A DNA stretch of 64,000 nt, from NCBI GenBank assembly GCA_016932315.1, contig JAFGDD010000018.1, positions 115,969 to 179,968 of the forward strand, written 5' to 3'. The DNA is from Candidatus Woesearchaeota archaeon (GTDB taxonomy: Archaea > Nanobdellota > Nanobdellia > Woesearchaeales > SM23-78). A program made the position numbers and the translations under genes. Within the stretch, counting starts at the first letter, position 1, and each line of letters starts with the position of its first letter. The notes beneath the pieces were generated by a model. It saw only the letters and a list, made by a program, of their open reading frames with translations. It had not been told where the DNA came from and did not search any database. Shown piece after piece: positions 14,768-63,145 of this stretch.

Positions 14768-14880
14768 AAAAAGTCACCTTGGACACCCCGCAGGGGGCGA
14801 CCCCCGTCCAAGCCACCTTGCACCTTAAAATTTTTAATAAAAAATTTTTGCGGTGCTGTGGCAGGTGGCGGTGGCTTTTT
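14768..14880 (+). repeat. Structured palindromic repeat, copy 1
   Basis: aaaaag-TCACC-TTGGAC-ACCCCGCAGGGGGCGACCCCC-GTCCAA-GCCACCTTGCACC-(AT loop)-GCGGTGCTGTGGCAGGTGGC-GGTGGC-ttttt. It is nearly the reverse complement of the copy at 39381-39494. Confidence 0.85.
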
Positions 14881-14975
14881 AACGGGTTTTGTGGCTCTTT
14901 TACAAGAAGATACTTTTTTATATGAGTTAAGCTTACCTTTGGCTTCAGATACTGGTTTTTGACACCATTATTTTT

Positions 14976-16565
14976 ATGTGGGGGTTGTTTATGGGAAGTT
15001 TAGCGCATGCGAGGAAGGTTGCTGGCGATGTTATTGAGAGGATTGAGAATTCAAAAGCGCCTTTTATTTATTTTATTATTACTTTCCTTCTGATGGCTAA
15101 TTTGAGGACTTTTCTTGAGGTTTTTTCTGACAAGATTAATGTTTCTTTTGATTACATCCTGCATTATAACCTGTTCTATATCGCTGTGGCTTTGTCTTTC
15201 ATGCTATTATTCCATTTTCTTATGAGAATTGACATTATTAAGATAGCCAGAATCATGCTCCCTTCATTTGCAGTATTATTCATTGCCCCGATTTTTGACT
15301 TGGCTGTGACTGCTGGCAAAGGCTTTGACATGACATACCTGCTTCCCGGGGTTCATGGCAACCTGCTGTTGAGGTTCTTTACTTTTTTTGGTGATTTTCC
15401 CGGAATGGGCATTACTCCTGGCATTAGGATTGGCGTGGCTTTCGGGATTATCGGGAGCTTCTTGTATGTTTACATCAAGCAAGCCAAAGTGCTTAAGGCT
15501 ATTGTTGCTGCATTATTGACTTATTCATTATTGTTCATCTATGGCATTACGCCTTTTATTGCAAAATTCATCCTTATGGTCTTTGGCGTAGAATACTCCT
15601 GGTCAGATATACTGCTTTCAAGCTTGTTCCTTACTGTCATATTAGTTCAAGGATTGTTCATAGCATATCTTGTGAAGAAGGATTATTTCAATATAATAAT
15701 CCGCGACCTGCGGTCATTGCGAGTGATGGCTTTTGTACTTTTGTTTTTTCTTGGCGTGGTTGTCGGCCTTCCTGAATTCTTTGTGCGCGAAGGATTGCCT
15801 TTCAAGGTGATATCAACTAATTTTTTTCATTTCCTGTTCATGCCTCTCAGCATAATATTCGGGATTCTTTTCCTGATAATCATCAACAACCTTGCAGACT
15901 ATGAGATTGACAAGATATCTAATAATGGCAGGCCTTTGTTTGATTCAAGGATTAATCATGATTCCTATGCAAGGCTTGGCTGGTATTTCCTTATATTATC
16001 GTTCGTTTTTGCTTTGTTGGTCAGCTTCTCTGCATTCTTTATACTGGCTTTATTCATCGGGGTTTATTTCATTTATTCTGTGCCTCCTTTGAGGCTTAAG
16101 AGAGTGCTATTCCTTTCCAAACTGATGATAGGAGCAGGCGCCCTTCTGATGGTGATGCTTGGTTTCATAGTCATAACAGGCGGCTTAAACAGCTTTCCAG
16201 GAATTTTAATAGTCTCTTTCCTGGTAGGAGCAACGCTCGTCGGCAACATGATTGACATAAAAGACTATGAGGGTGACAAGAAAGCAGGGATTAAAACATT
16301 GCCTGTTCTTATGGGGTTGAAAAAATCCAAGGTGCTCATTGGCTTTCTCATTCTGATTACCTATGCCGGCGTTGGCTTGCTGCAGAAAGATTTTTTTGTC
16401 CGCGCCGGATTCATATTCCTGGGCATCCTTATTTTTTACCTCATTAACAAAAAGAAATATGATGAGAAGCTCGTCATGCTGGTTTTCCTGATAAGCATCA
16501 TTGTGATGATGATAAGCATTTCACCAATGCAATTAAGTTTCCTTACTTGCGGGTTCTGCAATTAG
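14976..16565 (+). CDS. Polytopic membrane protein with a C-terminal UbiA-type prenyltransferase domain
   Basis: 529 aa and very hydrophobic. The first Asp-rich motif NNLADYEIDK lies at ~15886-15915 and the second, DIKDYEGDKKAGIKTLPV, at ~16253-16300, with the spacing typical of UbiA/DGGGP-synthase-type enzymes. About 270 additional N-terminal transmembrane residues precede the domain. An alternative ATG is at 14991. Confidence 0.7.
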   Translation: MWGLFMGSLAHARKVAGDVIERIENSKAPFIYFIITFLLMANLRTFLEVFSDKINVSFDYILHYNLFYIAVALSFMLLFHFLMRIDIIKIARIMLPSFAVLFIAPIFDLAVTAGKGFDMTYLLPGVHGNLLLRFFTFFGDFPGMGITPGIRIGVAFGIIGSFLYVYIKQAKVLKAIVAALLTYSLLFIYGITPFIAKFILMVFGVEYSWSDILLSSLFLTVILVQGLFIAYLVKKDYFNIIIRDLRSLRVMAFVLLFFLGVVVGLPEFFVREGLPFKVISTNFFHFLFMPLSIIFGILFLIIINNLADYEIDKISNNGRPLFDSRINHDSYARLGWYFLILSFVFALLVSFSAFFILALFIGVYFIYSVPPLRLKRVLFLSKLMIGAGALLMVMLGFIVITGGLNSFPGILIVSFLVGATLVGNMIDIKDYEGDKKAGIKTLPVLMGLKKSKVLIGFLILITYAGVGLLQKDFFVRAGFIFLGILIFYLINKKKYDEKLVMLVFLISIIVMMISISPMQLSFLTCGFCN

Positions 16566-16627
16566 GAATAATAATTAATAAGAATAATCAGTGATAGGGT
16601 ACTGTATTTGTATCTGTAATGTTCTCT

Positions 16628-17830: not shown

Positions 17831-17911
17831 TCCTCACCTCTTATTTTCTCCTCTTGCCTCTTTTATTATAACCTTGCTGTATAATCCTGCTGCTTAGTTC
17901 CTTAATATATT

Positions 17912-19949: not shown

Positions 19950-19968
19950 TTTAAAAATCTTAACTTAT

Positions 19969-22035
19969 TCACATGAATATTTTTTCCAGCGGGTAAACCC
20001 TTATTCCTTTGCCTTTGACGAATTCGAAAGGAACTATTTTCTTGAGGTGGTCTACTGCTCTCATCTTAAGTATCTCAAGCGCGCTCTGCTTCAGGTTTCC
20101 TTTCTGCAGGTTGTAAAACACTATTACTCCGTCTGCAAGGAATTCCTCGACTAGCCCATGGCCTATGTTTTCTATACCCTGCACTTCTGTTATTAGGAAT
20201 GATGTTGCTCCTGTTCTCTCAAGTATGTCTATAAGCTGGGTTACGTATATCCTGTAGGCTGTGCTTGAGTCTGAGAATGCTGCTGATATTGCAGAGAGCG
20301 AGTCGATGACTACCCTGTCTGGCTTGAAGTTTGGCGGCAGTATGTTGAGTATTGAGTTTATGTCTATCATCAATTCTCCTCTTGCGTGCGCTAGCAATGC
20401 CTCTATCATCCTTGATATCTTGAACGGGTCCTGCCTTTGTATCATTAAGGTTCCTTCTTGCAGGTATTTTCTCGGGTCGAGCCCGTATGCTTCCATGTGC
20501 TCTATCAGGTTTTCTTCTGATTCCTCAAATGTCATGAACAGGCATTTTTCGCCGTGCTCTGCAGCCCAGCCAAGCATTTGTATTGCAAAGGTTGTTTTTC
20601 CGCTTCCCGGCCCTCCTGATAAGAGTATTGTTGAGCCTGTTGGTATGCCGTCGCTTATCATATCGTCAAACCCGTACACTCCTGTCTTGATTTTTTTCCT
20701 TTCCTTCTTCTCTGTTTTTACTTCTTCCTCGACTGCTATGAATTCGCTGCTGTAATCTATGAGGTTGAGCTTTTCCAGGGTTTCTTTCACTGACATTATG
20801 GCTAAATCTACTTCTTGCTCTGATTTGCCTTTCTGCGGCTGCTCTGGCTTGAATTGTTCAGTTTTTATGGTTGAGGTTTCTACGCTCGCTGTTGTGCTTG
20901 CTGTGCTTGGTGGTGCTGAAGGTTCTATTTGTATTTTCGAAATCTCTGCTCCTTGCTTTTCTTTTTCAGCTTGCTTCTCCTTGGTTTCTGTTGCCTGCGT
21001 TGTCAGCTGAATGACTGTTTCTGCTGTTGCTACTGGTGATGTTGGCAGAGGCGGGACAATTTTTCTGCCTAGCCTCTCTTCATTCAGCTCATTAATCCTT
21101 GCTTTGATTAGCATTATAGTCTCTTCCTTGTTCTTTACATGAGTTAGAGCTTCTGCTAGATCTGCATCATTGACAATATGGTATATCCATGCTGCGAAAT
21201 CATTCTTGTGCTCATTCACGTGGTGCGAAAACACATCTTGGCTGATTCGTTGAAGTTCTTTTTCAAGCTCAGTCAGGCTTCTTATTATGTGCCCGTTCTG
21301 CAGCACAAATGAATGCTTTTTGTCAACAGCCCTCAGTAAATCTGGTTGGTAAGAGGGAACCTCAGCCAAGGGTTCTTCTTCTTGCTCTTCCTTGGCTTTT
21401 CCTTCGCGCCCCTTCCTGTGCTTTGATTCAGCTTGTTTTCTTGTTTTTTCTTCTTTTTCTTTTCTTATTTTCTTTTCTATGTCTTGTTTTATTTTCTCTT
21501 CTAATTCTCTCTTTATTCTTTCTTCTGTTTCTTTTCTTGCTTTTTCTTCCTGCTCTGCCCTTATTTTCTCTTCCATATCATGCTTTGCTTTTTCCTCTAG
21601 TTCGCGCCTTGCTTTTTCTTCATATTCGCGCCGTATTCTTTCTTCTGTTTCTTTTCTTGCTTTTTCTTCCTGCTCTGCCCTGATTTTATCTTCTAACTCT
21701 TTTCTTGCTTTTTCTTCAAATTCAGCTGTCAGACTTGGACGAGGCGCAGATGATGTGGGTATTGGCGATGGTTTTTGGGGTGGCGTCGGTGCAGGCTGAG
21801 GCGTTTCTGGTTCGGTTAGCTCTTTGACTTTTGAACTTATGAAGCCTATCAGTTTTTGCCTTTCAATCAATGGTTTTATCTCGTTTGCTAGATCACCATC
21901 CTTGATGTTCTTCAAAATCCAGTCCGAATAATCGTTCTTGCCTGCGTTCGCCCTTGTGCTGAATACCGCATCATCTATTGAGGAAAGCATCTTAATGAGC
22001 ATGTTCAGGTATTTGGCTTTAGTTAAATTGTCCAT
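19969..22035 (-). CDS. KaiC/RadA-like (RecA-superfamily) ATPase with two N-terminal KNDFA-x-W modules and a K/E/R-rich repeat region
   Basis: The C-terminal ~240 aa contain GFDDMISDGIPTGSTILLSGGPGSGKTTFAIQ (Walker A, ~20590-20618) and RVVIDSLSAI (Walker B-like). The track start at 22092 reads into repeat copy 2. The ATG at 22035 (MDNLTKAKYL) is the more likely start. Confidence 0.8.
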   Translation of the reverse strand: MDNLTKAKYLNMLIKMLSSIDDAVFSTRANAGKNDYSDWILKNIKDGDLANEIKPLIERQKLIGFISSKVKELTEPETPQPAPTPPQKPSPIPTSSAPRPSLTAEFEEKARKELEDKIRAEQEEKARKETEERIRREYEEKARRELEEKAKHDMEEKIRAEQEEKARKETEERIKRELEEKIKQDIEKKIRKEKEEKTRKQAESKHRKGREGKAKEEQEEEPLAEVPSYQPDLLRAVDKKHSFVLQNGHIIRSLTELEKELQRISQDVFSHHVNEHKNDFAAWIYHIVNDADLAEALTHVKNKEETIMLIKARINELNEERLGRKIVPPLPTSPVATAETVIQLTTQATETKEKQAEKEKQGAEISKIQIEPSAPPSTASTTASVETSTIKTEQFKPEQPQKGKSEQEVDLAIMSVKETLEKLNLIDYSSEFIAVEEEVKTEKKERKKIKTGVYGFDDMISDGIPTGSTILLSGGPGSGKTTFAIQMLGWAAEHGEKCLFMTFEESEENLIEHMEAYGLDPRKYLQEGTLMIQRQDPFKISRMIEALLAHARGELMIDINSILNILPPNFKPDRVVIDSLSAISAAFSDSSTAYRIYVTQLIDILERTGATSFLITEVQGIENIGHGLVEEFLADGVIVFYNLQKGNLKQSALEILKMRAVDHLKKIVPFEFVKGKGIRVYPLEKIFM

Positions 22036-22048: not shown

Positions 22049-22162
22049 AAAAAAATTGCCTCAGCCCTCAGCAAGCGCAACGTCATGAGCAAATGCGAAT
22101 GACTTGCACTGCGGCTGACGCGACAGGGGTTGCTCCCTACGGGATGTCGCGGGCAATTTTTT
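22049..22162 (-). repeat. Structured palindromic repeat, copy 2
   Basis: On the minus strand: aaaaaa-TTGCC-CGCGAC-ATCCCGTAGGGAGCAACCCC-TGTCGCG-TCAGCC...GGCTGA-GGCAA-tttttt. It lies 14 nt upstream of the KaiC-like start. Confidence 0.8.
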
Positions 22163-24434: not shown

Positions 24435-26840
24435 ATGGGTGAGCAGTTTTACAGGTTCTTTGTGAAGGGAGTGGTGCAGGGCGTTGGCTTTAGGCCTTAT
24501 ATTTACAGGAAGGCTAAGGATTATGGCTTATTCGGCTCTGTTCGCAACATGGGCAACGGCGTGGAAATCATAACTAATGACAAGGAGTTCATGGATAAAC
24601 TATCTGACCTTCCTCCGCTTGCAAGGATTTCTGAATTTTCTGCAGAGAAATTAGGAGGCAAGCAAAAATATTCTGAATTTACCATTCTTGCAAGCACTTA
24701 TTCTGAGGGTGAGACAGAGCTTCCTGCTGACCTGTTCATGTGCAATGACTGCATTGCGGAGCTCAGGGACAAGAAGAACAGGAGGCATAATTATTATTTC
24801 ATCACCTGCACCAACTGCGGACCGCGGTTCTCTATGATTGATGATTATCCTTATGACAGGCCTTTTACTGCGATGAAGGAGTTCAGTATGTGTCCTGCCT
24901 GTAAAAAGGAATATGCAAATCCTGATGACAGGAGGTATCATGCCCAGACTATTGCCTGCAAGGACTGCGGCCCAAAATTGATGCTTAGGGAAAGAAGAAA
25001 TGGAACTAATGGGAATGATGGAAAGAATGGAAATAAAATTGCTGATATAGGATTTCTGCATGATATCGGTGGCAAGTCTGATGCAGAAACAATAAAAAAA
25101 GCCGTCGGGCTTATCAAAAAAGGAGAAATAGTGGCTATTAAGGGAGTCGGCGGCTTTCACATCTGTTCTGTCTGCTCACAAGAAGCAGTTGGCAAGGTTA
25201 GAGCTCTTCTTCACAGGCCTCACAAGCCTTTTGCAGTAATGGCAAGAGATATTGAAATGATTGAGAAATATGTTAATATCTCTGCTGAGGAAAAAAAGCT
25301 GCTCCTTTCGCCTGCAAGACCTATTGTTGTGTTGAGGAAAAAAGAAAAAAAAGCCAGTGAAAGATTTGGTTCAGTGTCTGAACTGAACTCTGTCGGCGTC
25401 ATGCTTCCTTACACTGCGCTGCACTACTTATTGTTTGACTTTATTAACGAGCCTTTGCTGATGACGTCTTATAATGTTCCTGGAGAACCTGTCTTGTTGA
25501 GCGAGCATGGTGAAGTAGATGCAAAATATTATTTGACGCATGAAAGAGAGATAATCAATCGCTGCGATGACTCTGTAATCAAGGTAATTAATGGCAAGGC
25601 TTTCTTCCTCAGGCGCTCGCGAGGATTTACTCCGTTATCAATCCTGATGTTAAGCCCCTTTAATAATTGCGAAAAGCCACCTTGGGCATCCCGAATGGAG
25701 CAACCCCTGCCCAAGCAACCGCTTTGCAAATCACTCGCTAATGCTCGTGATGTTGCAAATGTTGCAGGTTGCGGCGGCTTTTCTAATGTGCATGAAACTA
25801 TACTTGCTCTTGGCGCTGAGATGTCTAATGCGGTTTGCACAGCCAAGAACAATAAATGCTTTTTGTCGCAGTATATAGGAACTACTTCAAAGCTCAAGAC
25901 TTTTTACTTCATGAAACAAGCAACAGATAATCTTATCAGGCTGACGCGAGCTAAGCCTGCAATTATTGCCTGCGACTTGCACCCAGGATATAATTCTACA
26001 GCCTTTGCAAAGGAGCTTGCAGATAAGCATAATGCAAAGCTTGTTCAGTTCCAGCACCACAAGGCTCATGTAGCCAGCGTTGCAGCAGAGCACGGGCTTA
26101 AGAATTATGTAGGCATTGCAATGGACGGATTAGGCTATGGCGAGGACGGCAATATCTGGGGAGGGGAAGTATTTGACGTAAGAAACGGAAACGAATTTGT
26201 TCGCATAGGAAGCTTGGAAGAACAGCCCCAGCTCGGAGGGGACTCCGCAACTATCTACCCCAAGAAGATGCTTTTCGGCATCCTCTCAAAGTTCCTGCCT
26301 GAGAAAGAGCTAATTGCAATGAAATTATTTGATGATAAGGAAGCAAAGCTTTACCTAAAGCAGCTCAGGGAAGGATTCAATGTTCTGCTCACGACAAGCG
26401 CGGGCAGGGTTCTTGACGCGGCAGCTGCCCTTTTAGGATTGTGCGACCATAGGACTTATGACGGAAGGCCTGCAATGATCCTTGAGAGCTTTGCAGACGG
26501 CGCAGAGCCGTTTGATATTAAGCTAATCCTTGAAAAAAAGGATGGCAGGCTGATATTGATGACAACGCCAATGTTCAAATTCTTAATTGATAATCTTGGC
26601 AAAGACAAGACTAGACTGGCTGCCACGGCTCAGACTTATGTTGCAAATGGAATGCTTGAGATTGCCAAGTCCGTGATGAAAAAAAGGAAAAAGCCAATTG
26701 TTTTCTCTGGCGGTGTTGCCTATAACTCAATGATATCAGGCATCATGATTAAAGAGGGAGTTCTTGTTAACAAAAACATACCTTCTGGCGACGGAGGAAT
26801 ATGCTTTGGCCAGGCTTACCTTGCGAGACTTTCAGGATAG
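24435..26840 (+). CDS. hypF: Hydrogenase maturation carbamoyltransferase HypF, carrying an in-frame repeat insertion
   Basis: 801 aa. It has an acylphosphatase-like N-terminus (VKGVVQGVGFRPYIY), two CxxC-x18-CxxC zinc-finger pairs (CNDCIAEL..CTNCGPRF and CPACKKEY..CKDCGPKL), a YrdC-like segment (IVAIKGVGGFHI) and a Kae1-like C-terminus. Confidence 0.9.
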   Translation: MGEQFYRFFVKGVVQGVGFRPYIYRKAKDYGLFGSVRNMGNGVEIITNDKEFMDKLSDLPPLARISEFSAEKLGGKQKYSEFTILASTYSEGETELPADLFMCNDCIAELRDKKNRRHNYYFITCTNCGPRFSMIDDYPYDRPFTAMKEFSMCPACKKEYANPDDRRYHAQTIACKDCGPKLMLRERRNGTNGNDGKNGNKIADIGFLHDIGGKSDAETIKKAVGLIKKGEIVAIKGVGGFHICSVCSQEAVGKVRALLHRPHKPFAVMARDIEMIEKYVNISAEEKKLLLSPARPIVVLRKKEKKASERFGSVSELNSVGVMLPYTALHYLLFDFINEPLLMTSYNVPGEPVLLSEHGEVDAKYYLTHEREIINRCDDSVIKVINGKAFFLRRSRGFTPLSILMLSPFNNCEKPPWASRMEQPLPKQPLCKSLANARDVANVAGCGGFSNVHETILALGAEMSNAVCTAKNNKCFLSQYIGTTSKLKTFYFMKQATDNLIRLTRAKPAIIACDLHPGYNSTAFAKELADKHNAKLVQFQHHKAHVASVAAEHGLKNYVGIAMDGLGYGEDGNIWGGEVFDVRNGNEFVRIGSLEEQPQLGGDSATIYPKKMLFGILSKFLPEKELIAMKLFDDKEAKLYLKQLREGFNVLLTTSAGRVLDAAAALLGLCDHRTYDGRPAMILESFADGAEPFDIKLILEKKDGRLILMTTPMFKFLIDNLGKDKTRLAATAQTYVANGMLEIAKSVMKKRKKPIVFSGGVAYNSMISGIMIKEGVLVNKNIPSGDGGICFGQAYLARLSG
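25672..25792 (+). repeat. Structured palindromic repeat, copy 3 (inside the hypF coding sequence, in frame)
   Basis: gaaaag-CCACC-TTGGGCA-TCCCGAATGGAGCAACCCC-TGCCCAA-GCAACC...GGTTGC-GGCGGC-ttttc. It translates as ..CEKPPWASRMEQPLPKQPLCKSLANARDVANVAGCGGFS.. Confidence 0.8.
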
Positions 26841-26858: not shown

Positions 26859-27260
26859 TCAGCCGGTAAGCACTAATTTTCCGTGCAATACTCCCTGCGA
26901 TGATAAGATCTCGTCAGCAAGCCCGGTTATGTTTTTGACTTTTCCCTCGAGAACGAGCACTTCCATGCACTTGCTCTCATTCATGTGAACGTGCAGTGTG
27001 CTGCGGATTAATCCGGGATGATGATGCTGGATATGGGTTAAGTTGTGCTGCACATTGTGTTCGTGATGGTCATAAACCAGAGTCAATGTTCCCATCATCG
27101 CGCTTTCAGGATTTTCTCTTTTCTCATCAACCAATGATTTCCTTATAAGGTCGCGTATTGCATCAGACCTGTTCTTGTAGCCTTTCTTTGTGCTCGCAGC
27201 ATCAAATTCTTTTAACTGTTTTTTGTCAAAAGCAATACCCTTTCTTATAATGTTCTCCAT
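26859..27260 (-). CDS. nikR: Nickel-responsive regulator NikR (RHH plus a His-rich metal-binding domain)
   Basis: 133 aa. It has an N-terminal ribbon-helix-helix (IAFDKKQLKEFDAASTKKGYKNRSDAIRDLIR) and His-rich segments HHEHNVQHNLTHIQHHH. It lies among the hyp genes. Confidence 0.85.
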   Translation of the reverse strand: MENIIRKGIAFDKKQLKEFDAASTKKGYKNRSDAIRDLIRKSLVDEKRENPESAMMGTLTLVYDHHEHNVQHNLTHIQHHHPGLIRSTLHVHMNESKCMEVLVLEGKVKNITGLADEILSSQGVLHGKLVLTG

Positions 27261-27333
27261 GCGTCCACCTCTTTTTTCGATTTTCTTTCAACCTTTCTTT
27301 CAATATTGTGACACAAGCAGAGTATAAAAGTGT

Positions 27334-27353
27334 TACGATTTATAAAAATCGTA
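27334..27353. promoter_or_regulatory. Perfect 8-4-8 inverted repeat in the nikR divergent intergenic region (candidate operator)
   Basis: TACGATTT-ATAA-AAATCGTA lies between nikR (minus strand) and the plus-strand membrane-protein genes. AT-rich TATA-like boxes sit next to it (agtataaaag, gtttatatac). Confidence 0.45.
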
Positions 27354-27430
27354 GCAAAGTTTATATACTGTTGGTGCGCTTAGCATCATGACAGCAAATT
27401 TGTGAAGATTAAAAAAGAGGGTGAGGCAAA

Positions 27431-27769
27431 ATGGCATGTTTTTTAGCACCAGCATCTGTTGCCATAATAACGACAGTTTTTAGAAAGAAATTCTCTAAGG
27501 CATGGCATATTAATTGGTTGAATACCATGATATGGGGCGGAACAATAGGATTGGCGGTTGAACACATAGCTCATCAGGAAATAGTGCCGTGGTTTCCATT
27601 CTTATCAGCGATGAGCAACCATGCTGACACCATGGTCATGCTTAAAGAGATAGCATCAGTGGGCATACCAATGACTTTGGCTTTGGTTTTTGTGTGGGCA
27701 GTAATGGTGGTTGTCTACGAAAAAGCCATAACATCTAGCAGATCACCTATAAAAAACGCATTGCAGTAA
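27431..27769 (+). CDS. Small membrane protein (His-containing loop EHIAHQE)
   Basis: 112 aa with ~3 hydrophobic segments. A good SD-like sequence, gagggtgagg, lies upstream. Confidence 0.55.
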   Translation: MACFLAPASVAIITTVFRKKFSKAWHINWLNTMIWGGTIGLAVEHIAHQEIVPWFPFLSAMSNHADTMVMLKEIASVGIPMTLALVFVWAVMVVVYEKAITSSRSPIKNALQ

Positions 27770-27785
27770 AATAAGGAAAAGAGGT

Positions 27786-28112
27786 GTGAAAATGTGGATG
27801 ATTATAACACTAATTGCGGCTATTGCCACTTCAACTATTTATTTCTTATTTAAAGATTATAGGAGGAAGCTCAAATTAGGCTTGCTGGCCTTGATGATGC
27901 TTGGAACTTTTTTAATGGTTCTTGTGGACCATGTTATTGCATTAATCGAAGGCGAGCCATTAATAGAACTGACGACTGATGGTCTGATAAGTAATGGAGC
28001 CCTGCTTGGAATCTCTATGGTACTGCCTATCTTCCTGATTTGGGCAATTGCTGTTCTGATTTATTGTAGAAAAGAAAAAAGTCACATTCAGAAAATAAGC
28101 AATACTAGCTAA
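27786..28112 (+). CDS. Small membrane protein
   Basis: 108 aa with 3 hydrophobic segments. The likely ATG is at 27792 (MWMIITL). Confidence 0.55.
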   Translation: MKMWMIITLIAAIATSTIYFLFKDYRRKLKLGLLALMMLGTFLMVLVDHVIALIEGEPLIELTTDGLISNGALLGISMVLPIFLIWAIAVLIYCRKEKSHIQKISNTS

Positions 28113-28158
28113 AGCAGTCTAATAGCAACTCCTGAATTTTTTTGGTTGGTGATAACTT

Positions 28159-28440
28159 ATGAACTATGAAAGTCTGATAAAACCGCCGATGAGCCAGACC
28201 CTGAAATCAGGCAGGGTAGTTCTTCAGCCAGGCGAAGAAATTGGAGAGCACACGACCAGCAGCAAGGAAGAGCTTATTATCGTTCTGAACGGAGAATTGC
28301 TCCTTAGGAAAGGACGTGAAGAAATTGTTTTGAAGAAAGGAAACTCCCATTACATTCCTCCGGAAGTAATTCATAACGTCATTAATAAATCTGGCGCGGA
28401 GTCAGAATACATCTATGTAGTATGCCTCTTAAAGGATTAA
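28159..28440 (+). CDS. Cupin-domain small protein
   Basis: 93 aa. GEEIGEHTTSSKEELIIVLNGEL...GNSHYIPPEVIHNVIN fits the two-motif cupin pattern. Confidence 0.6.
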   Translation: MNYESLIKPPMSQTLKSGRVVLQPGEEIGEHTTSSKEELIIVLNGELLLRKGREEIVLKKGNSHYIPPEVIHNVINKSGAESEYIYVVCLLKD

Positions 28441-28491
28441 AATAATGGACTAATAGAAAAATATTGGTCGACATTAATGGCCAACTTGCTA

Positions 28492-28836
28492 TTATCCTTT
28501 TATCTCCTTTATTATTACCTTGTCGCCTTGCAGAATCTTTACATTGGTAGATTGGCACTTAGGGCAGATTATGAGCGGAGACGGCTCAATTTTGCTTTTC
28601 TTCTTGCAGTCATTGCACAGAATCTTTCCCGGTATCTCAATAATCTCAAGCTTAGCATTCTTTAACAAGCCAATCTCTTTCTTGTGAGCCTCGAAATACA
28701 TCATTATAGGCTCTTTCTTGTAAGTCGTCAGCATTCCCAGTTCCACAACAATCTTCTTTGGGTTGGTTATGTTCTCGTCTTCACAGGCGTGCAATATCTG
28801 ATGCACAACCTCGTCAGTTATTCCATGCTCATGCAT
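28492..28836 (-). CDS. hypA: Hydrogenase nickel-insertion protein HypA
   Basis: 114 aa. It has the MHE N-terminus and a CxxC-x12-CxxC zinc site (CNDCKKK...CPKCQS). Confidence 0.85.
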   Translation of the reverse strand: MHEHGITDEVVHQILHACEDENITNPKKIVVELGMLTTYKKEPIMMYFEAHKKEIGLLKNAKLEIIEIPGKILCNDCKKKSKIEPSPLIICPKCQSTNVKILQGDKVIIKEIKG

Positions 28837-28863
28837 TATTTGTCACCTCGATTTCTTATTCGG

Positions 28864-29005
28864 AAAAAGTTGCCGCAGCCCGCAGCTGCACCGCCGACAT
28901 TTATGTCAAGGTGCTGGCTGCTGTGGGTGGGGTCGCGCCCTCGGGCTGTTGCTAGAGCACTAGCAACTCCAAAAGTTTACTTTTGGCTCCCACTGGCAAC
29001 TTTTT
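28864..29005 (-). repeat. Structured palindromic repeat, copy 4 (with extra nested hairpins)
   Basis: It fills almost the whole hypE-hypA spacer. Ends: aaaaagTTGCC ... GGCAActtttt. H2 outer stem: GCAGCC..GGCTGC. Core: AGCCCGAGGGCGCGACCCC. Confidence 0.75.
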
Positions 29006-30009
29006 CAGCATATCCTCGGCACTATCCTGCCTGTTGGCATCGCCAGGATTCTCTTGCCCAGCATTGTCTGGAGGACTACGTGATTATCCTTTGCATCATC
29101 AACTATCTCTCCAATAATAGAAGCGTCTGGGTTGAATTCTTTCAATAGCTTAACGACTTTTGAAGCACTGTTTTTGTCAGCAACGCATATCATCCTGCCC
29201 TCGCAGGCGAGTTCATAGAGATTAATGCCCAACATCTCAACAACTTTTCTTACTTCCTGCTTTGCAGGGATTTCTTCTTCTGAAACCAGCATCCCTACTT
29301 TGTTCTTTGAGCATATTTCGTTAAGTATTGATGCAATCCCTCCTCTGGTCGGGTCCTTAGCTATCTTTATCAGGCGCTTGACAGCATCCATCTCTTTGAT
29401 TAAAGGCTTGGAATCAGTTATTATCTTTGTTTCATATTCAAATCTTTTTGATAGCAGCGCAACGGCATGCTCGCCAATCCCGCCGGAAATTATTACCTTG
29501 TCGCCAGGAATTATTTTTTTCGTCAACAAATCCTTCTCATCAACGATTCCTAATCCTGACGTGTTGATTATTATCTTGTCCAGCTTTCCATTTTCCATGA
29601 CCTTGGTGTCGCCGGTAACCACAGAAACATCATATTCTTCTGACAGCTTCTTTATAGAAGTGATTATTTTGTCAAGGTCTTCTTTTGAAAACCCTTCTTC
29701 AATCACAAATCCGAGGGAAATGCCCAATGGTTTGGCACCCATGACTACTAAATCGTTTATTGTGCCTGAGAATGCAAGATGCCCTATGTCTCCGCCGGGG
29801 AAGAATATGGGGTTAACAATGAAAGAGTCGGTTGTGAAAACCAGCTTGCCGGGTTTGCCCTTGCCCTTAACCGCGTCCAAATCCAGGACTGCAGAGTCAT
29901 TGTCGCATTCCTTCCAGTTTCCTCTCTTGCAGAACCCAAAGCTCTTTATCAATTCCTGCATTTCCTTCCCGCCAGAGCCTTCTGCCAGTGTTATGAAATC
30001 CTTTTGCAT
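29005..30009 (-). CDS. hypE: Hydrogenase maturation protein HypE
   Basis: The C-terminus is ...PRIC and the body is AIR-synthase-like. The track start at 30150 reads through repeat copy 5. The ATG at 30009 (MQKDFITLAEGSGGKEM) gives the expected ~334 aa. Confidence 0.9.
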   Translation of the reverse strand: MQKDFITLAEGSGGKEMQELIKSFGFCKRGNWKECDNDSAVLDLDAVKGKGKPGKLVFTTDSFIVNPIFFPGGDIGHLAFSGTINDLVVMGAKPLGISLGFVIEEGFSKEDLDKIITSIKKLSEEYDVSVVTGDTKVMENGKLDKIIINTSGLGIVDEKDLLTKKIIPGDKVIISGGIGEHAVALLSKRFEYETKIITDSKPLIKEMDAVKRLIKIAKDPTRGGIASILNEICSKNKVGMLVSEEEIPAKQEVRKVVEMLGINLYELACEGRMICVADKNSASKVVKLLKEFNPDASIIGEIVDDAKDNHVVLQTMLGKRILAMPTGRIVPRIC

Positions 30010-30039
30010 TTTAATCACGAATTTTTTTTGAGCACCTTC

Positions 30040-30163
30040 GAAATGCTTGATTGTTTTAATCGAGGATGCTGCCTCCAATAAAACTTGTTTTATTGGATCA
30101 GCAAGCTTTGCTTGCTTGCTCCCCGGATGGGGCGTCCCCCGGCAACGCATTTGCTTATTTTTT
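30040..30163. repeat. Structured palindromic repeat, copy 5 (rearranged or degenerate)
   Basis: Closing arms are aaatgc..gcattt. The core hairpin TTGC-TCCCCGGATGGGGCGTCCCCCG-GCAA lies at 30116-30145, next to a T-tract. An extra hairpin, ccaataaaacttgttttattgg, is present. The core orientation relative to the flanks differs from the other copies. Confidence 0.45.
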
Positions 30164-30214
30164 CTAAGGCATTTCGACCTTAGGGTGCTCTTTTTTTTAT
30201 ATTACAATTATTTT

Positions 30215-31255
30215 TTATCTCCCGTACTTGTAGCTTATTGAGCAGCTTCCTTCCTCTGAAACCATGCATGCGCCTTTTGGATTTTCTGGAGTGCAGGCTT
30301 TCCTGTAGAGCGGGCATTCTGTCGGCTCAATCAGTCCTTTGAGCACTTCTCCGCACCTGCAGGCTGTTTTCTTTGGCTCAGGAACCTTGCTTAATATATT
30401 CTTGTATTTAATCTTGGCGTTTAAATCATCTTTTCTTACTTCAAGCCCAGAGTTGGGTATTACTCCGAGCCCTCTCCACTCGCTGTCGCTAATCTTGAAG
30501 TGATTGTTAAGCAATTTCTGCGCAATAATATTGCCTTCATAATGCACAGCTTCAGGGTAAGCATTAACAACGCTTTTCTTGTCGTCCTTGATGAGCTCGA
30601 GCAATGCCCTTATCCCGCGAAGGATTCTTTCTGCGCTAAAGCCGGTTATGGCTTGGGCTACTTTGATGTCAGCATAAGCTTTTTCTCCTATAATCGTGGA
30701 TACGTGACCTGGATTGATGAAGCCGTCAATCTTTATTTCTCCTCCTAGCATTGCTTTAATAGCAGGCACTACTAGTTTGTGGACTGAATAAACGCAGATG
30801 TTGTTCTCCAGCAGGAAAGTAGTCATTGGTGCTGTTGTTTCAAAGCCTATGCCGAAAAAAACAATGTGAGGATAATCTTTTCTCAGTTTTAATACTTCTT
30901 CTGCAGAATAAACCTCGAAGACCTTGCAGCCCTTGGCTCTTGCATCCTCTAATGAGTAATTGCTTCCAGGCACCCTCATCATGTCGCCGTACGTAGCTAC
31001 AGGCACTCCTTGCATCGCCAATTCTATCATGCAGTCAATGTCTTTTTGCGAGCTCACGCACACAGGGCAGCCAGGACCTGATATCAGCCTGATGTTCTTC
31101 GGCAGTATCTCCCTGATGCCATACTTCATTATTATGTTAGTATGCCCGCCGCATATTTCCATCAGTGTGGCTTCTCGCTTGATGCTTCGAGCTATTTTGT
31201 TAATATCATTCAGGTGTTGCTTTGTCAGCTCTTCATCATTCATTTTCTTAATCAT
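30215..31255 (-). CDS. hypD: Hydrogenase maturation protein HypD
   Basis: 346 aa with CGGHT, GPGCPVCV and a C-terminal Cys cluster (CRCGEVLKG..CPLYRKACTPENPKGACMVSEEGSC). Confidence 0.9.
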   Translation of the reverse strand: MIKKMNDEELTKQHLNDINKIARSIKREATLMEICGGHTNIIMKYGIREILPKNIRLISGPGCPVCVSSQKDIDCMIELAMQGVPVATYGDMMRVPGSNYSLEDARAKGCKVFEVYSAEEVLKLRKDYPHIVFFGIGFETTAPMTTFLLENNICVYSVHKLVVPAIKAMLGGEIKIDGFINPGHVSTIIGEKAYADIKVAQAITGFSAERILRGIRALLELIKDDKKSVVNAYPEAVHYEGNIIAQKLLNNHFKISDSEWRGLGVIPNSGLEVRKDDLNAKIKYKNILSKVPEPKKTACRCGEVLKGLIEPTECPLYRKACTPENPKGACMVSEEGSCSISYKYGR

Positions 31256-38100: not shown

Positions 38101-39362
38101 ACATTGCCTTCAATTGTGAAGTAGATGTTGGCTGCTTTTTCCTTGAAGCTGTAAAGAGTGACTTTCTCCTGGAGGAAATTCCCTAGTCTGAGTTTTCTGT
38201 TAATCTCAGAGATGGACACGATGTAGTCTGTTCCTTCTATTTTCTTAGGCCTTTGGACTACAGGCGGCATGTCATACTCTCCTGATTTTGTTTTTGTACC
38301 TTCGGCATCAACTCCTGTTGTGGTAGTTGTTCCAGGAGCGTCTTCTCCGGGGCCTATACCTGTGAGTGGCGGGTAAGGAGGCTGTTTGGCAACCATGACA
38401 ATATTATGCGCTGTGCCATTTTCACGTACCACCGTTACGTTGCTTCTATAGATTTCATAGCCTGTCTTCATGGCATAAACTGTCCAGTTGCCTTCGCGGA
38501 CTGTTACATTGTAGAAGCCTGTTGTGTTGTCGCTGTAAGTTGCTTCTCCGCCAATCTCAACAATTACGCCGCCAAGAGGGTTTCCGGAAGTATCTGTGAC
38601 ATTCCCATAAACATAGCCTTCCCATGGAGCTGTTCCCTGTCCTTCAGGGCATGTGTCTGTTGGATCTGACCATAAGTAATAATCCTGCCATTCTGTGTTA
38701 TGAATAGGTAGGAGCATTTGGTAATTGAACCTTTCTCCTGTGAAACCATCAATTGGAGATTCAAGCACTTTTGTGACAATGACCAAATTATCATTGCTGT
38801 CTTTTAGTATTCCTGTAACAAATGAAGTAGAGTTCTGGCTGTTCCAGGCATAAGTATGCATGGCAGGTGCAATCACATCTCTGCCTCCAACATCAAAGGT
38901 TTCTGTTGATGTGAATGTGTTAGTTGCAGAGAAGAATTCTCCAGTGCTTATGTTAAGATAATCATCTATTTCTGCTGCTGTAGCTGCTACAAGCGAGTCG
39001 AAGATGATTTCATCTTCAGGCACCATGCTGGCATATATCTCGTGCTCTGCGTCCTGCGCAAAGCAGGTGAATAATAAGTGCTTTTCATTATCATCTTCTG
39101 TTAATGTTACATTGCCTGTGAAATTATAATACCATTCCTGAGTCCACCCAACGCCCCAAGCAGTTCCATAAACACCAGACCAGTGGCTGACGTCGAATGC
39201 AAGCTCAAGCTCAATTTCAGTGATTGTGCCGCCATCAGTCTGGAGGTAGGATGCATAGCCTATGAATTGCGATACTATGATTAACCCTTTGATGGCTAGC
39301 ACTACAAGTATGATTATTAGAATTCCGAATGCAATTTCCTTATTCCTAGTCTTCACAACCAT
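35160..39362 (-). CDS. Membrane-anchored HerA/FtsK-superfamily P-loop ATPase with a ~570-aa ectodomain and three C-terminal KNDFA-x-W modules
   Basis: 1400 aa. TM1 is ILIIILVVLAIKGLIIV. The ectodomain includes a CarboxypepD_reg-like segment (GNVTDTSGNPLGGVIVEI..GFYNVTVREGNWTVYAMKTGYE). TM2 is WHLLLFLLLVALGLVAYW. Walker A GSTGSGKS lies at ~37316-37342 and Walker B VLFVYDEVHRL at ~36942-36972. A HerA-like LLISQVLSDF...NTEIQMRTRD segment follows. Confidence 0.75.
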   Translation of the reverse strand: MVVKTRNKEIAFGILIIILVVLAIKGLIIVSQFIGYASYLQTDGGTITEIELELAFDVSHWSGVYGTAWGVGWTQEWYYNFTGNVTLTEDDNEKHLLFTCFAQDAEHEIYASMVPEDEIIFDSLVAATAAEIDDYLNISTGEFFSATNTFTSTETFDVGGRDVIAPAMHTYAWNSQNSTSFVTGILKDSNDNLVIVTKVLESPIDGFTGERFNYQMLLPIHNTEWQDYYLWSDPTDTCPEGQGTAPWEGYVYGNVTDTSGNPLGGVIVEIGGEATYSDNTTGFYNVTVREGNWTVYAMKTGYEIYRSNVTVVRENGTAHNIVMVAKQPPYPPLTGIGPGEDAPGTTTTTGVDAEGTKTKSGEYDMPPVVQRPKKIEGTDYIVSISEINRKLRLGNFLQEKVTLYSFKEKAANIYFTIEGNVSSLIKMDKESMILLSRSDDSVTLTIFGVGDPGIYNGSLVMSGDINVSIPIIIEILPKEMLPVQALLIDLELNKNVVYPGSSLKFKTDLRNLLTDLQYPVQLLYTIQDIEGKETIWSYETNVFLRTSFSLLKNALITAKAKPGDYILRVTANYLGLSAGTSTIFRISTPWYLVTIIGPIKMWHLLLFLLLVALGLVAYWQIKRNIESKKKFHLKVDLNELPKPGPRSIPVGRIAETDHKTYFSLEAFMTHCIDAGSTGSGKSVSAQVIVEEMLMKGIAVVVFDPTAQWTGMLRKCTDKTMLALYPLFGMKPTDAKAFSGNIRQITNPREIIEIRKYIKPGEIQVFACHKLEPREMDMFVANSIREIFRANFQESRTLKVLFVYDEVHRLLPKFGGSGEGFLQIERGCREFRKWGLGILLISQVLSDFVGTIKANINTEIQMRTRDEGDLERIKVKYGEDVLRSLVKATVGSGMVENPHYNIGKPYFVAFRPLLHSVQRLTDEEIEKYNEYNDKIDQLQFELEQLEKEGIDVFDLKLELKLATDKVKTGNFNMVQIYLDGLTPRIQKHWDKLGKKPEKLEKKLVSETELQEAITRAKKARSDYEAMMKKEASASGEGEEKKDKGAINFFKKDVEPDKILKLVNGMLVINMASLYDEISAMKDDDYAKHVTENKNDFANWVREAVGDAELADHMSLAVEKKDILSLIDLRKNQKPLPKLEPDKIKKLKEIKAFSELSGEPSEIKKKAEVEPQPKEQTEKAKQAGQQKEAQSSDTPPAKFFEKNAEPEDMLVLVNGILVMNLDSLHDELVNMSDGDFAKHVNGQKNDFADWTRNIIGDALLAEQLGAMSKREDVIKCIELRKSNRLPQAVSPRKPENGEKKSAKPGLEEKVKGAKPVPAADSGVQEAEISYSFKLETGEEIKTLNELQDKVKNMDDASFKHYVSDDYNKFADWVRDGLHNKELADKISRIHDRNKLLEALSSA

Positions 39363-39380
39363 TTTGTTTTTTTAGTATGT

Positions 39381-39494
39381 AAAAAAATTGCCGCCACCTG
39401 CCACAGCACCGCAAAAATTTTTATTAAAAATTTTAAGGTGCTTGGTGGCTTGCTCGGGGGTTGCCCCGCCCGGGGTGAGCAAGGCGATTTTTTT
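39381..39494 (-). repeat. Structured palindromic repeat, copy 6
   Basis: On the minus strand: aaaaaaa-TCGCC-TTGCTCA-CCCCGGGCGGGGCAACCCCC-GAGCAA-GCCACCAAGCACC-(AT loop)-GCGGTGCTGTGGCAGGTGGC-GGCAA-ttttttt. It lies 19 nt upstream of the ATPase start. Confidence 0.85.
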
Positions 39495-39552
39495 GCTCGT
39501 TAGTTTTGTTTTTCTCCTTTCTTTTTTCACCTTTTCATCCATATCTTTTCAT

Positions 39553-44895: not shown

Positions 44896-44929
44896 TTTTT
44901 TAATTCATTATTTCTTATCGGATGCGTTC

Positions 44930-45093
44930 AAAAAGTCGCCACAGCCTACAGCAAGTGCAACGTCATGAATGTTAATGAATGACTTGCACGTCGGCTGTTT
45001 GGACTGGGGTTGCAAGCAAAAATCCTTTTGGGATTTTTGATGTGCCAAAACAAAGTTTTGCCACGCCCTACGGGCTGTCCAAGGCGGCTTTTT
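44930..45093 (-). repeat. Structured palindromic repeat, copy 7 (with a ~50-nt nested insertion in the core)
   Basis: On the minus strand: aaaaag-CCGCC-TTGGAC-AGCCCGTAGGGCGT[insert]CAACCCC-AGTCCAA-ACAGCC..GGCTGT-GGCGAC-ttttt. Its H2 is very similar to that of copy 2. Confidence 0.75.
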
Positions 45094-45157
45094 GGAAGAT
45101 TTTAAACACAACATTTTTTATCAATAGATTTATAATCTCTTTTATTTTCCCTGTATT

Positions 45158-58060: not shown

Positions 58061-58112
58061 GAATATTTAACATTATCAACTCAGTGATTATTTAAACTAT
58101 TTTTTTATTTTC

Positions 58113-59447: not shown

Positions 59448-59467
59448 TTTAAAAATAAATTATATTT

Positions 59468-60325: not shown

Positions 60326-60429
60326 GATATCACCTAAGACGAGGAAATGAGGCTATTTATTTAAATCTTTTCCTTGGTGACTACTGAAGAATTAGAAAGA
60401 ATGAAGAGACGGCGAATTGATTGCCAGAT

Positions 60430-62988
60430 TTAACCGTAGTATGAGGGACGCTGATCTTTCATTTCCTTGCCTCTTGCTGCCCTGAACATGTTCTGCAATT
60501 CCTCATAGGCTTCTGCGACGTCTTTTGTGGCTGAAGGCTTGACTTTCTCCATGGCTTTCTCAAAGTGCTTGAGCTTTATTGTTTTTGCTTTCATGTCTTC
60601 TCGCAACGCAAAAATGGCTGCTTCCCTGCAAACTGCTTCAATGTCTGCGCCGACGTATCCATCTGTTTTCTCAATGAGCTGGCTGACGTCAATCTCCTTG
60701 TCAAGAGGCATGCCTTTGGTGTGAACCTTGAAAATCTCTTTTCTGGTCTTAACATCAGGCACAGGCGCGAGTATAATCCTGTCAAATCTTCCTGGTCTGA
60801 GGAGTGCTGTGTCCATGATGTCTGGTCTGTTAGTCGCTCCTATAATGACGATGTCGTTTAGTTCTTGCAAGCCATCCATCTCTGTTAACAACTGGTTGAC
60901 TACTCTTTCTGTTACGTGGCTGTCGTCTCCTCCTCCACCCATGCCTCTTCTTGGCGCTATGGAGTCTATTTCATCGAAGAATATTATTGTCGGGCTGGCT
61001 TGCCTTGCTTTCTTGAAGACTTCACGAACTGCTTTTTCGCTCTCACCAACCCATTTGCTAAGCATCTCAGGTCCTTTAACTAGGATGAAGTTCGCTGCTG
61101 ATTCATTAGCCACTGCTTTTGCCAGCATTGTCTTTCCTGTTCCTGGCGCTCCGTAAAGAAGAACTCCCTTTGGCGGCTTGACTCCCATTCTCTTGAAATC
61201 ATTCTTGAACTTGAGAGGCCACTCAACAGCTTCAATAAGCTCCTGCTTGACATTATCAAGTCCGCCGATATCTGTCCACTTGACATTAGGAATCTCAATG
61301 AGGACTTCACGCAATGCGCTTGGCCTCACAACTTTTAGAGCGTCTTTGAAATCTTCCTGCCCCAGAATCAGCTTATCAAGAATCTCTTGTGGTATTGGCT
61401 CTTTTTCCTTGAGTTGAGTGTCACCCAATACTCTTCTGAGAACAGTCATGGCTGCTTCCCTCGCAAGTGATGCTAAATCTGCTCCAACAAATCCGTGTGT
61501 GATGCTTGCTATCTTTGTGAGCATATCTTCCTTTAGAATGTTACCTATTTGCGTTTTTTCATTAGATGTAAGGATGGAATTATCTGTTCCAGTCATGCTT
61601 TTATGAAAATCTGCTTGCTTAATTTTAATAATCTTATCAAGAATTTTTTTCAGATTGTCCAACTCTGCTTTTTTCCCCTTAACAAGTGATTGTATTTCGT
61701 CATCGTTGCCATTTGATTTTGAAGATAATTGCATTAATTCCTGATTAAAGTTGTTAATTTTATGTTCTAAACCTAATCTTGCTTGTTCCAATTCATAATT
61801 AGGTTCAATAGGCATGTTTCTGGTGTGTATCTTTAGGATTGTTAACCTGCCAATCTCATTAGGCACTCCAATCTCTATCTCCCTGTCAAACCTTCCTGGT
61901 CTCCTGAGTGCAGGGTCTAAAACATTTGGTATGTTGGTCGCTGCTATTACTATGACTTTGCCTCTTGAATTCAGGCCGTCCATGATTGCGAGTAATTGGG
62001 CTACTACTCGTCTCTCAACTTCGCCCCTGCTCTCTTCTCTCTTTGGAGCAATTGCGTCTATCTCGTCTATGAATATGATGCTTGGAGCATTCTTTTCTGC
62101 TTCTTCGAATTTCTTTCTAAGATTTTCTTCTGATTGGCCGTAATACTTGCTCATTATCTCTGGTCCGTTTATGAGTATGAAGTTTGCATTAGTCTCATTA
62201 GCCACTGCTTTTGCTAAAAGAGTTTTTCCTGTTCCTGGGGGTCCGTGCAATAATACTCCTTTTGGCGCGTCAATTCCTAATCTCTCAAATATTTCAGGGT
62301 GCTTTAATGGGAGCTCTATCATCTCCCTGACTTTCTTTAATTCTTCATCAAGCCCTCCAATATCCTCATATGTGACATCCAAGGGCTTTTCTTCGCTAAC
62401 CTCAACAGCTTTTGGATTGAAGACAACGTCTGTGTTTTCTGTGATGAGCACTGCTTGTTTTGGCTCGCAATTAACAACCACAAACTTTAAGTCACCAAGG
62501 CCTAAGCCCATGGTAGTTTCATTCATCATGCTGAACATCTCGTCAAAGAAAGGGTGGCCGCTCATGGTGCTTCTTCTCCTCTGGGTCCCACCCAGAGAAA
62601 CAATATCTCCCTTGACAACTGGCCTTCCAAGAAGTCCTTGCTTGAAAACATCTGGGTTGGCTCTTACCATTAAGCCTTCCCTTGCAGGAGCAATGGTGAC
62701 GCTCTTGGCTTCCTTAACCTCTGCTTTTCTTATGATTACGAACTCTCCAATGCTTGTCTTGGCATTCCTCCTGATGAGAGGGTCTGTGCGGACTATGTTC
62801 AATCCCATGTCGCCTGGCAATGCCCTGTCAGCAATGCCCACAGTCTTCCTCTCACCCTGGATTTCTATGATGCTTCCTGGGCGCACATCTATCTGCTTCA
62901 AGAAGTCAGTACCAACCCTGACAATACCCTTATTAACATCTTCCTGGATGGCTTCAGCCACCTTTAACCTTATTTCAGCCTTTGGCAT
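60430..62988 (-). CDS. cdc48: CDC48/VAT-type double-ring AAA+ ATPase with a ~95-aa insertion in D1
   Basis: Two AAA modules are present: [15 protein letters not shown] / IIFIDEIDA and [15 protein letters not shown] / IIFFDEIDS. The N-domain reads [13 protein letters not shown]... The track start at 63066 reads into repeat copy 8; the ATG at 62988 is the likely start. Confidence 0.9.
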
Positions 62989-63043
62989 TTTTAGAAGGTT
63001 AAAACTAAATGGTTTATATAGTTTTGGGTTGAAAGAAAAAGTC

Positions 63044-63145
63044 AAAAAGTCGCCGCCACCAGCCACTGCACCGCCGACTGAAAGTCAAGGTGCTTGGTGG
63101 CTCTGACGGGGGCTGCCCCATCCGGGGTGTCAGAGGCGACTTTTT
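63044..63145 (-). repeat. Structured palindromic repeat, copy 8
   Basis: On the minus strand: aaaaag-TCGCC-TCTGAC-ACCCCGGATGGGGCAGCCCCC-GTCAGA-GCCACCAAGCACC-ttgactttcagt-CGGCGGTGCAGTGGCTGGTGGC-GGCGAC-ttttt. Confidence 0.85.

Follow-up and report, generated by a model that had tools for sequence, protein, structure and literature searches.

A family of structured palindromic repeats is dispersed over 64,000 nt of a Candidatus Woesearchaeota archaeon genome (GCA_016932315.1, contig JAFGDD010000018.1, positions 115,969-179,968 of the forward strand; this whole stretch is called the window, and its own numbering is used throughout). On balance, we regard the copies as probably a non-autonomous mobile DNA element, a miniature inverted-repeat element resembling the Rickettsia palindromic elements (RPE) and specific to one clade of Woesearchaeota; the family is possibly partly domesticated. 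A covariance model trained on 16 copies and applied to the window and to other loci detected seven full copies in the window, all with E ≤ 1e-17, and no further full ones. They matched at 14768-14880(+), 22050-22162(-), 25671-25783(+), 28864-29005(-), 39382-39493(-), 44930-45093(-) and 63044-63145(-), and the repeat family fills about 1.7 % of the window. An earlier reading of the letters alone (the preliminary description) had listed eight copies of a dispersed palindromic family. The family is real and all eight loci exist, only seven of them belong to one family. A pattern of the core plus the 3' end matched five of the eight loci, with none expected from 100 shuffles.

Each copy of this family folds as a three-way junction in which every junction base is paired. 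In the closing stem P1, an A4-7 run and a 6-nt arm pair with the complementary arm and a T4-7 run. P2 is a copy-specific stem of 6-7 bp that encloses the core, an invariant 22-nt motif of the consensus A-Y-CCCG-NNN-GG-R-GC-RR-CCCC-Y. The third helix, P3, is a long hairpin, and the subfamily follows from its interior. The architecture given in the preliminary description (A-run, closing arm, hairpin around the core, second hairpin, closing arm, T-run) was correct. The unit of about 110 bp is GC-rich in an AT-richer genome and almost wholly helical; its length ranges from 98 to 200 nt in 74 copies, it contains no open reading frame (ORF) beyond read-through of the GC-rich repeat, and the folding z-scores lie between -3.8 and -5.6. 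An extended subfamily carries an outer stem P0 and AAAATCTTYC as 5' extension and GAAC plus the outer stem as 3' extension. P3 carries its 3' arm as a tandem duplicate (e.g., GTGGC-N-GGTGGC; model columns 91-95 and 98-102, window 14861-14874 and 63055-63068), with at least four of five positions identical in 53 of the 74 copies. The upstream duplicate covaries with the 5' arm (69-88 % Watson-Crick pairs vs 0-34 % when shifted); since both duplicates do so, P3 has two mutually exclusive pairing registers.

Compensatory stem changes, already noticed in the window, were confirmed in the 16 training copies and then in 74 copies from at least six Woesearchaeota genomes or long contigs. In the smaller set 94 % of the cells were paired and 21 of 33 pairs had changed on both sides (0 of 500 shuffles), while slid pairing partners reached 36-51 %. 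In the larger set the values were 92.5 % and 23 of 33 pairs (again 0 of 500). P1 is paired to 98 % across the 74 copies and so represents the terminal inverted repeats of a MITE, a miniature transposable element with inverted repeats. Among the pairs were 2171 Watson-Crick, 22 G.U and 35 A.C combinations, the latter two each about 1 % of the cells. A transition in a Watson-Crick pair leads with equal chance to G.U or A.C, of which RNA tolerates only G.U. The near equality of both therefore indicates a pairing constraint that is symmetric on both strands, which argues for DNA, or for a copying or repair process, rather than for sense RNA alone. Thus, the covariation provides no evidence for a constraint at the RNA level.

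The elements insert at new sites with duplications of 9-11 bp of the target and are present or absent at orthologous sites. Six of the 74 copies are flanked by such target-site duplications: the window copy c7 (GATAAAAAAT/GATAAGAAAT) and the copies at L061 (TTATAGCTAAG), L028 (GAAATAAACC), L033 (CGTTAAGCAAA), L029 (AGGCATAAG) and L077 (GAAATTATTT), where L-numbers denote individual loci from related genomes or metagenome contigs. The duplications enclose the whole unit of the extended subfamily at consistent offsets, 17-21 nt upstream and 9-12 nt downstream. Flank repeats of at least 9 nt occurred in 10.8 % of the true flank pairs vs 3.5 % of mismatched pairs. Two empty sites were found: in L001 the genes that flank c2 in the window directly abut, and in L029 a spacer measures 47 nt, compared with about 190 nt with a copy in L050. 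The patchy distribution also supports mobility. Size, inverted termini, target duplications in a subset and dispersed copies with presence or absence at orthologous sites are those of a MITE. The loci in the window are as follows.

14768..14880, + strand: c1, 113 nt, subfamily A with an AT-rich P3 tip, 112.9 bits, E 3e-28; in a divergent spacer, directed toward the UbiA-family gene at 14976.
22049..22162, - strand: c2, 114 nt, subfamily B, 117.2 bits; sense, ends 16 nt upstream of the start codon of a KaiC-like ATPase gene.
25672..25785, + strand: c3, subfamily B, 111 nt from A4 to T4; sense and in-frame within hypF.
28864..29005, - strand: c4, 142 nt, two additional hairpins within P2; its first base is the last base (A) of the hypE stop codon (..PRIC-TGA), and it ends 27 nt before hypA.
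30022..30198, + strand: scaffold of a second family, in the hypD-hypE spacer, antisense to the operon; closing arms T8 + GAGCACC ... GGGTGCTC + T8.
39381..39494, - strand: c6, 114 nt, subfamily A; sense, ends 19 nt upstream of the start of a 1400-aa HerA-like gene.
44920..45112, - strand: c7, full extended element, antisense, between adk and the next + strand gene; 5' extension GTTGTGTTTAAAATCTTCC, Y-core 44930-45093, 3' extension GAACGCATCC.
45113..45122, - strand: left target-site duplication of c7, GATAAAAAAT.
44910..44919, - strand: right target-site duplication of c7, GATAAGAAAT, 9/10 identical to the left one.
63044..63145, - strand: c8, 102 nt, shortest copy, subfamily A; sense, 12 nt past a helicase-C gene and 55 nt ahead of a CDC48-type ATPase gene.

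Three entries of the preliminary description had to be corrected. The copy regarded as rearranged at about 30040-30163 is the distinct scaffold 30022-30198, which has only the 22-nt core (30120-30141) in common with the others. Copy c7, given as 44930-45093, extends over 44920-45112 and is flanked by the 10-bp direct repeat. Copy c3 is located within the HypF reading frame and not in a spacer. Extra nested hairpins are present in two copies, as had been noticed, namely in c4 and c7 (28864-29005 and 44930-45093); in c7 the two additional hairpins interrupt the core motif. Copies c4 and c3 and the second scaffold lie at a hydrogenase-maturation cluster (26859-31255: nikR, hypA, hypE, hypD, with hypF nearby), an observation of its own for a DPANN (Woesearchaeota) genome; repeats occupy two intercistronic spacers of the hyp operon and one more lies within hypF. 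The hypA gene downstream of c4 has a GGTG Shine-Dalgarno sequence. Copy c6 has a 10-nt direct repeat, AAAAACAAAA, 9 nt beyond each end. In 39362-39530, AAAGGAG-AAAAACAAAA stands upstream of c6 and the 10-mer AAAAACAAAA recurs directly before the downstream ATG; the insertion of c6 may have split the original Shine-Dalgarno sequence from its start codon. The 5' flank of c2, AAAGGAGAAAAAACGAAAC, resembles that of c6.

The family is no assembly artefact, it is lineage-restricted and, as far as checked, undescribed. Confinement to this one contig, a concern of the preliminary description, is excluded by at least 74 copies on independent contigs and assemblies. In a species-level scan with two different sequence patterns (one genome per species, 185,579 species) both patterns matched only the Woesearchaeota metagenome-assembled genome (MAG) JAFGRK01, with at least 19 copies counted on the blocks of this MAG that were analysed, and the Nanoarchaeia MAG DATEYH01, besides few bacterial matches that were all rejected by the covariance model. 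A metagenome scan yielded 59 loci, 48 of them with model-confirmed copies; four long contigs of one metagenome sample (654, 570, 283 and 262 kb) had 5-10 strict matches each. The MAG JAFGPE01 is linked to the window by HypF and about 6 kb of synteny. This closest relative by synteny gave no match in the species scan, and its 10.8-kb syntenic locus is copy-free. The host is an archaeon of the Woesearchaeota (DPANN), and the genes of the window are archaeal and chromosomal (hypA, D, E, F, nikR, truD, gatD, gatE, adk, KaiC-like and CDC48-type ATPases, giant proteins with Ig domains). In agreement with the preliminary description, which did not recognize the core from any described archaeal family, Rfam at gathering thresholds had no match in the whole 64 kb, and a permissive search with two copies (E ≤ 10) gave only noise (E > 1). 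A scan for tRNA and tmRNA genes found none. The patterns had no match in viral contigs, so there is no evidence for a viral vector. The literature searched for repeats or MITEs of DPANN and Woesearchaeota contained nothing relevant. A promoter and terminator scan was based on bacterial models and is uninformative for an archaeal host.

Copies survive where they are least harmful: in AT-rich spacers beside start and stop codons, and in surface loops or linkers of proteins if they are in-frame and stop-free. Of the 74 copies only 2 are intragenic, one in HypF and one in Bud32. The two inserts have the same length of 111 nt, lie in sense orientation, use one shared frame of the element and are absent from the homologues. 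Copy c3 encodes EKPPWASRMEQPLPKQPLCKSLANARDVANVAGCGGFS and adds about 45 residues to the linker that joins the YrdC-like domain to the Kae1-like one. The structure of Thermococcus HypF aligns to residues 5-407 and 457-798 of the window protein, which has 801 aa compared with 719-752 aa in all 119 best homologues. The copy at L010 adds 47 residues to Bud32 in the beta7-beta8 turn, between HGDLTTSNMIL and IIFIDFGL, and Bud32 of M. jannaschii aligns to residues 12-116 and 164-236 of the L010 protein. Peptides belonging to the two proteins are EKPPWASRMEQPLPK.. for HypF and EKSPLPPRVGRPP.. for Bud32. Stop codons are missing from the three sense frames about equally often (in 34, 29 and 37 of 74 copies), thus survival in-frame needs no selection for coding. 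A bulge-helix-bulge intron or another spliced intervening sequence was rejected for both genes: the closing stem runs on as one perfect helix inside the element, free of bulges, and the two copies are exact multiples of three, stop-free and in the same frame, as for translated surface-loop insertions. A profile search with the element peptide in 5.8 billion proteins retrieved one spurious 71-aa ORF over L033; the query is too short for a database of this size, and the result is uninformative on the intragenic frequency. A second insertion in HypF is unrelated to the repeat: about 20-25 N/G-rich residues, RRNGTNGNDGKNGNKIADIGFLH, at ~24980-25075 (residues ~184-214), past the zinc-finger region and missing in all aligned homologues.

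The 22-nt core behaves as a portable module, carried by at least three other repeat scaffolds within a short stem. The scaffold at 30022-30198 consists of several hairpins (folding z-score -5.7), and the covariance model gives a match to the core only (30116-30145). It has a homologue with 81-85 % identity at L019:4190-4355, where it lies between the gene of a PilB-like ATPase and a hypothetical one and not between hyp genes. The window genome and the L019 genome share no other nucleotide similarity. Further scaffolds with the same core are L039:6317-6440 and L053:11070-11200. The core positions 2, 12 and 21 (e.g., 63126, 63116 and 63107 on the - strand in c8) covary three ways, with the states C-G/C (39 copies), G-C/A (18), C-G/U (7), U-A/U (5) and C-G/G (2). 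Their mutual information of 0.99 bit was equalled by none of 5000 permutations, and each state was found with many different P2 and P3 stems. C-G/C and U-A/U are states of canonical Y.R-Y base triples. Judged from the sequence, the geometry of the core would let the CCCC-Y21 strand run parallel to GGG-R12. The core might then be a self-contained pyrimidine-motif triple helix, a Y2-CCC/GGG-R12 hairpin with CCCC-Y21 in its groove, and the sense copies, located in the 5' leaders and between the cistrons of DPANN, would make up a cis-regulatory RNA system that extends over the genome, spread by a mobile element and now maintained by the host. It might, for instance, place an attenuator or stabiliser that depends on a protein or on pH before dnaK, gltX, rpP1, ndk and rpoA''. 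We consider this proposal improbable. In JAFGRK01, the copies L004, L007, L008 and L011 have the identical core loop CGAGGGG, L008 and L011 also the same P2, and copies at matching gene junctions in other genomes differ from them; this hints at homogenisation or gene conversion within the genome.

Of the copies that lie between co-directional genes, 38 have sense and 9 antisense orientation (binomial p = 2.5e-5), and in the window six of the eight loci are in sense to their surroundings, as was noted before. Fourteen of the 38 sense copies start at most 12 nt past the preceding stop codon; 17 end 9-34 nt upstream of the next start codon, often directly before GGAGG or GGTG, with 0-16 nt between element and Shine-Dalgarno sequence. 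Convergent spacers are depleted of copies (2 of 58 vs 99 of 537 in the background, p = 0.003), divergent ones are not. This depletion, together with the many copies ending shortly before a start codon, weakens the earlier suggestion that the oligo-T ends act in termination; a simple terminator is disfavoured also by the little room left for a promoter ahead of the next gene. A role of the T-run as TATA box of leaderless genes was rejected, the spacing being inconsistent and Shine-Dalgarno motifs lying between T-run and ATG. Several gene junctions carry a copy in more than one genome: grpE-dnaK in four (DnaK 80-87 % identical), the site upstream of gltX in three, rpP0-rpP1, ndk and a metallophosphoesterase gene in two each; rpoA'-rpoA'' and rpS15 are further junctions of this kind. 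Copies at orthologous positions are not mutual nearest relatives. The conservation of junctions has two readings, vertical retention with saturated compensatory change, or replacement and gene conversion among copies. The copies with target-site duplications are of mixed orientation (3 of 6 antisense), which suggests that the sense bias arises after insertion. As to the base composition, the window is strand-skewed (T 34.5 % vs A 23.0 % on the + strand), in keeping with the location of most long genes on the - strand.

The main rival reading is a host-functional cis-acting RNA module, possibly derived from a MITE and domesticated. Sense copies would be transcribed in leaders and spacers, fold autonomously under the clamp of the helix of A-run and U-run, and are predicted to serve as mRNA 5' stabiliser or processing site, as partial U-tract attenuator or as binding site of a core-specific protein. 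Such a role is compatible with a mobile origin. The sense bias speaks for it, as do the mixed orientation of the duplication-bearing copies, suggesting filtering after insertion, the proximity of many copies to Shine-Dalgarno sequences and start codons, the recurrent junctions (dnaK, gltX, rpP1, ndk, metallophosphoesterase, rpoA''), the invariant core common to three different scaffolds and the three-way covariation within it. However, G.U is not favoured over A.C, which is atypical for selection on RNA, and turnover or gene conversion among copies that are not closest relatives could mimic conservation at orthologous positions. Antisense and in-ORF copies occur, the distance to the Shine-Dalgarno sequence is variable, and the closest relative of the window genome has no element at the c2 site. 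We rate an RNA module as rather unlikely. The preliminary description had held an RNA role to be as plausible as a MITE. MITE hallmarks were observed directly and the covariation contains no RNA evidence; the sense bias and the positional conservation keep a strand-specific role under consideration. Multi-copy small RNA genes or self-cleaving ribozymes, suggested by the compact, GC-rich and covarying fold with its low z-scores in an AT-richer genome, are the least probable explanation. No Rfam family was found even at E ≤ 10, the junction has no unpaired conserved nucleotides, a wobble signature is lacking, and copies within ORFs or abutting stop and start codons have no room for their own promoter. 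Very improbable are also folded single-strand DNA recombination sites of the integron attC or Xer type, acting as cassette boundaries for a tyrosine recombinase. Conserved structure with variable sequence, strand-symmetric pairing and the two registers offered by the duplicated P3 arm would fit such sites. Known attC sites have R''/L''...L'/R' boxes (RYYYAAC...GTTRRRY) and form co-oriented arrays adjacent to intI. Here these boxes are absent from the consensus, both orientations are found, no integrase was detected in the window, and the copies adjoin housekeeping genes in synteny (hyp operon, grpE-dnaK, rpP0-rpP1) instead of cassettes; moreover, tyrosine recombinases do not make target duplications of 9-11 bp.

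Several observations also weigh against a mobile DNA element. Target-site duplications are discernible in only 6 of 74 copies and not in the other 68. The outermost termini keep their complementarity but not their sequence, in which they differ from the terminal inverted repeats of classical MITEs. Nearest-neighbour identities between copies are 75-93 %, none above, and as near-identical copies are missing, nothing indicates a recent burst. Sense bias (38:9) and retention at junctions across genomes with DnaK identities of only 80-87 % exceed the expectation for purely selfish DNA. Pfam scans of about 45 window ORFs revealed no transposase or recombinase, as the preliminary description had stated for the transposase, and a paralogy comparison of 855 ORFs from about 550 kb of related loci found orthologues only, no multi-copy ORF family. 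A mobile element remains our preferred reading, with the following putative mechanism. An enzyme encoded elsewhere would mobilise the element in trans and would recognize the fold together with the core instead of a terminal sequence, given that the end stems are variable yet complementary, the core is common to different scaffolds and the covariation is free of wobble pairs. If only lineages with perfect Watson-Crick helices propagate, this would explain the massive compensatory variation without wobble intermediates. Selection after insertion would purge most antisense copies; those in sense orientation would be retained in 5' leaders and between cistrons, and some of them may have gained a role for the host.

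The class of mobile repeats is itself familiar, and the preliminary description had correctly named REP, Correia and RPE-type elements as nearest analogues. REPs are single hairpins of 20-40 bp with a GTAG or CGTC head and without target duplication. The woesearchaeal elements share with REP/BIME the GC-rich extragenic palindromes in intergenic and intercistronic positions, compensatory changes that keep the stem, a presumed recognition by structure and proposed roles in host mRNA stability, but they are Y-junctions of 100-200 bp with duplications of 9-11 bp and no conserved GTAG or CGTC at either end, and so fall outside the definition of REPs. No RAYT-like gene (Y1_Tnp) was among the ORFs scanned, the genomes not having been searched in full. 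An element of the IS200/IS605 or PATE type is disfavoured because of the target duplications. Correia/NEMIS elements of Neisseria, ERIC of enterobacteria and the pneumococcal BOX, RUP and SPRITE are likewise small and non-coding, with terminal inverted repeats and target duplications. These elements are co-transcribed with their neighbours as stable RNA hairpins, which can affect termination, processing or stability. Their terminal sequences are conserved and some are tied to known IS families, whereas the present family, known from sequence alone, has variable terminal stems with maintained complementarity and a single internal 22-nt motif as conserved part. Non-autonomous repeats occur also in other archaea: the MITEs of Sulfolobus (SM1-4), Halobacterium, Haloquadratum and Desulfurococcus are deletion derivatives of IS with conserved terminal inverted repeats (PMC10969869); in the literature searched, none was reported from DPANN and none with this fold or core. 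Closest in description are the RPEs, which, as far as the summary of Ogata et al. (2000, 2002) in PMC10969869 portrays them, are palindromes of about 100-150 bp located between genes and in-frame within unrelated conserved proteins of a small genome. In that account the likeness covers size class, palindromic nature, small genome, position between genes and in-frame (here HypF and Bud32), one constant element frame and a peptide added at a tolerated surface site (HypF linker, Bud32 beta7-beta8 turn). The likeness is one of description, and membership in the RPEs is not claimed, nor is homology in sequence to be expected: the host is an archaeon instead of a member of the Rickettsiales, only 2 of 74 copies are intragenic with three equally open frames and no sign of coding selection, and the fold has three helices meeting at one junction and a core that does not vary.

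Two neighbouring genes of the window deserve mention for their own repeats. The gene downstream of c2 (- strand, 19969-22035) contains at 21392-21751 about 15 tandem 24-nt units, which code for an 8-residue repeat rich in E and K and belong to the N-terminal half of the 688-aa KaiC-like ATPase; the syntenic orthologue in L001 has 412 aa and lacks this region. On the - strand of 1-13860, one open frame of more than 4600 codons runs past the window start. It is interpreted as a giant surface protein because of its diverged repeat units of about 300 nt and domain matches to Big_7, Big_13, filamin and MG2.

The woesearchaeal repeat is the first such family in DPANN and an unusually structure-constrained example of its class; new are the perfect three-way junction, the core common to several scaffolds and a conservation of structure only. 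DPANN genomes are tiny and streamlined, and in the literature searched miniature mobile repeats had not been described there. With HypF (a hydrogenase maturation factor) and Bud32 (the kinase of KEOPS), two conserved enzymes, entered without destruction, the Rickettsia theme of selfish DNA inside proteins is extended to the Archaea. The structure-defined element and its covariation in Watson-Crick pairs only point to a mobilisation machinery that reads structure, and the family is a natural data set for separating covariation at the DNA level from that at the RNA level. If the sense bias and the retention beside dnaK, gltX, ribosomal-protein and RNA-polymerase genes reflect function, it would represent a rare transposon-spread RNA regulon in archaea.

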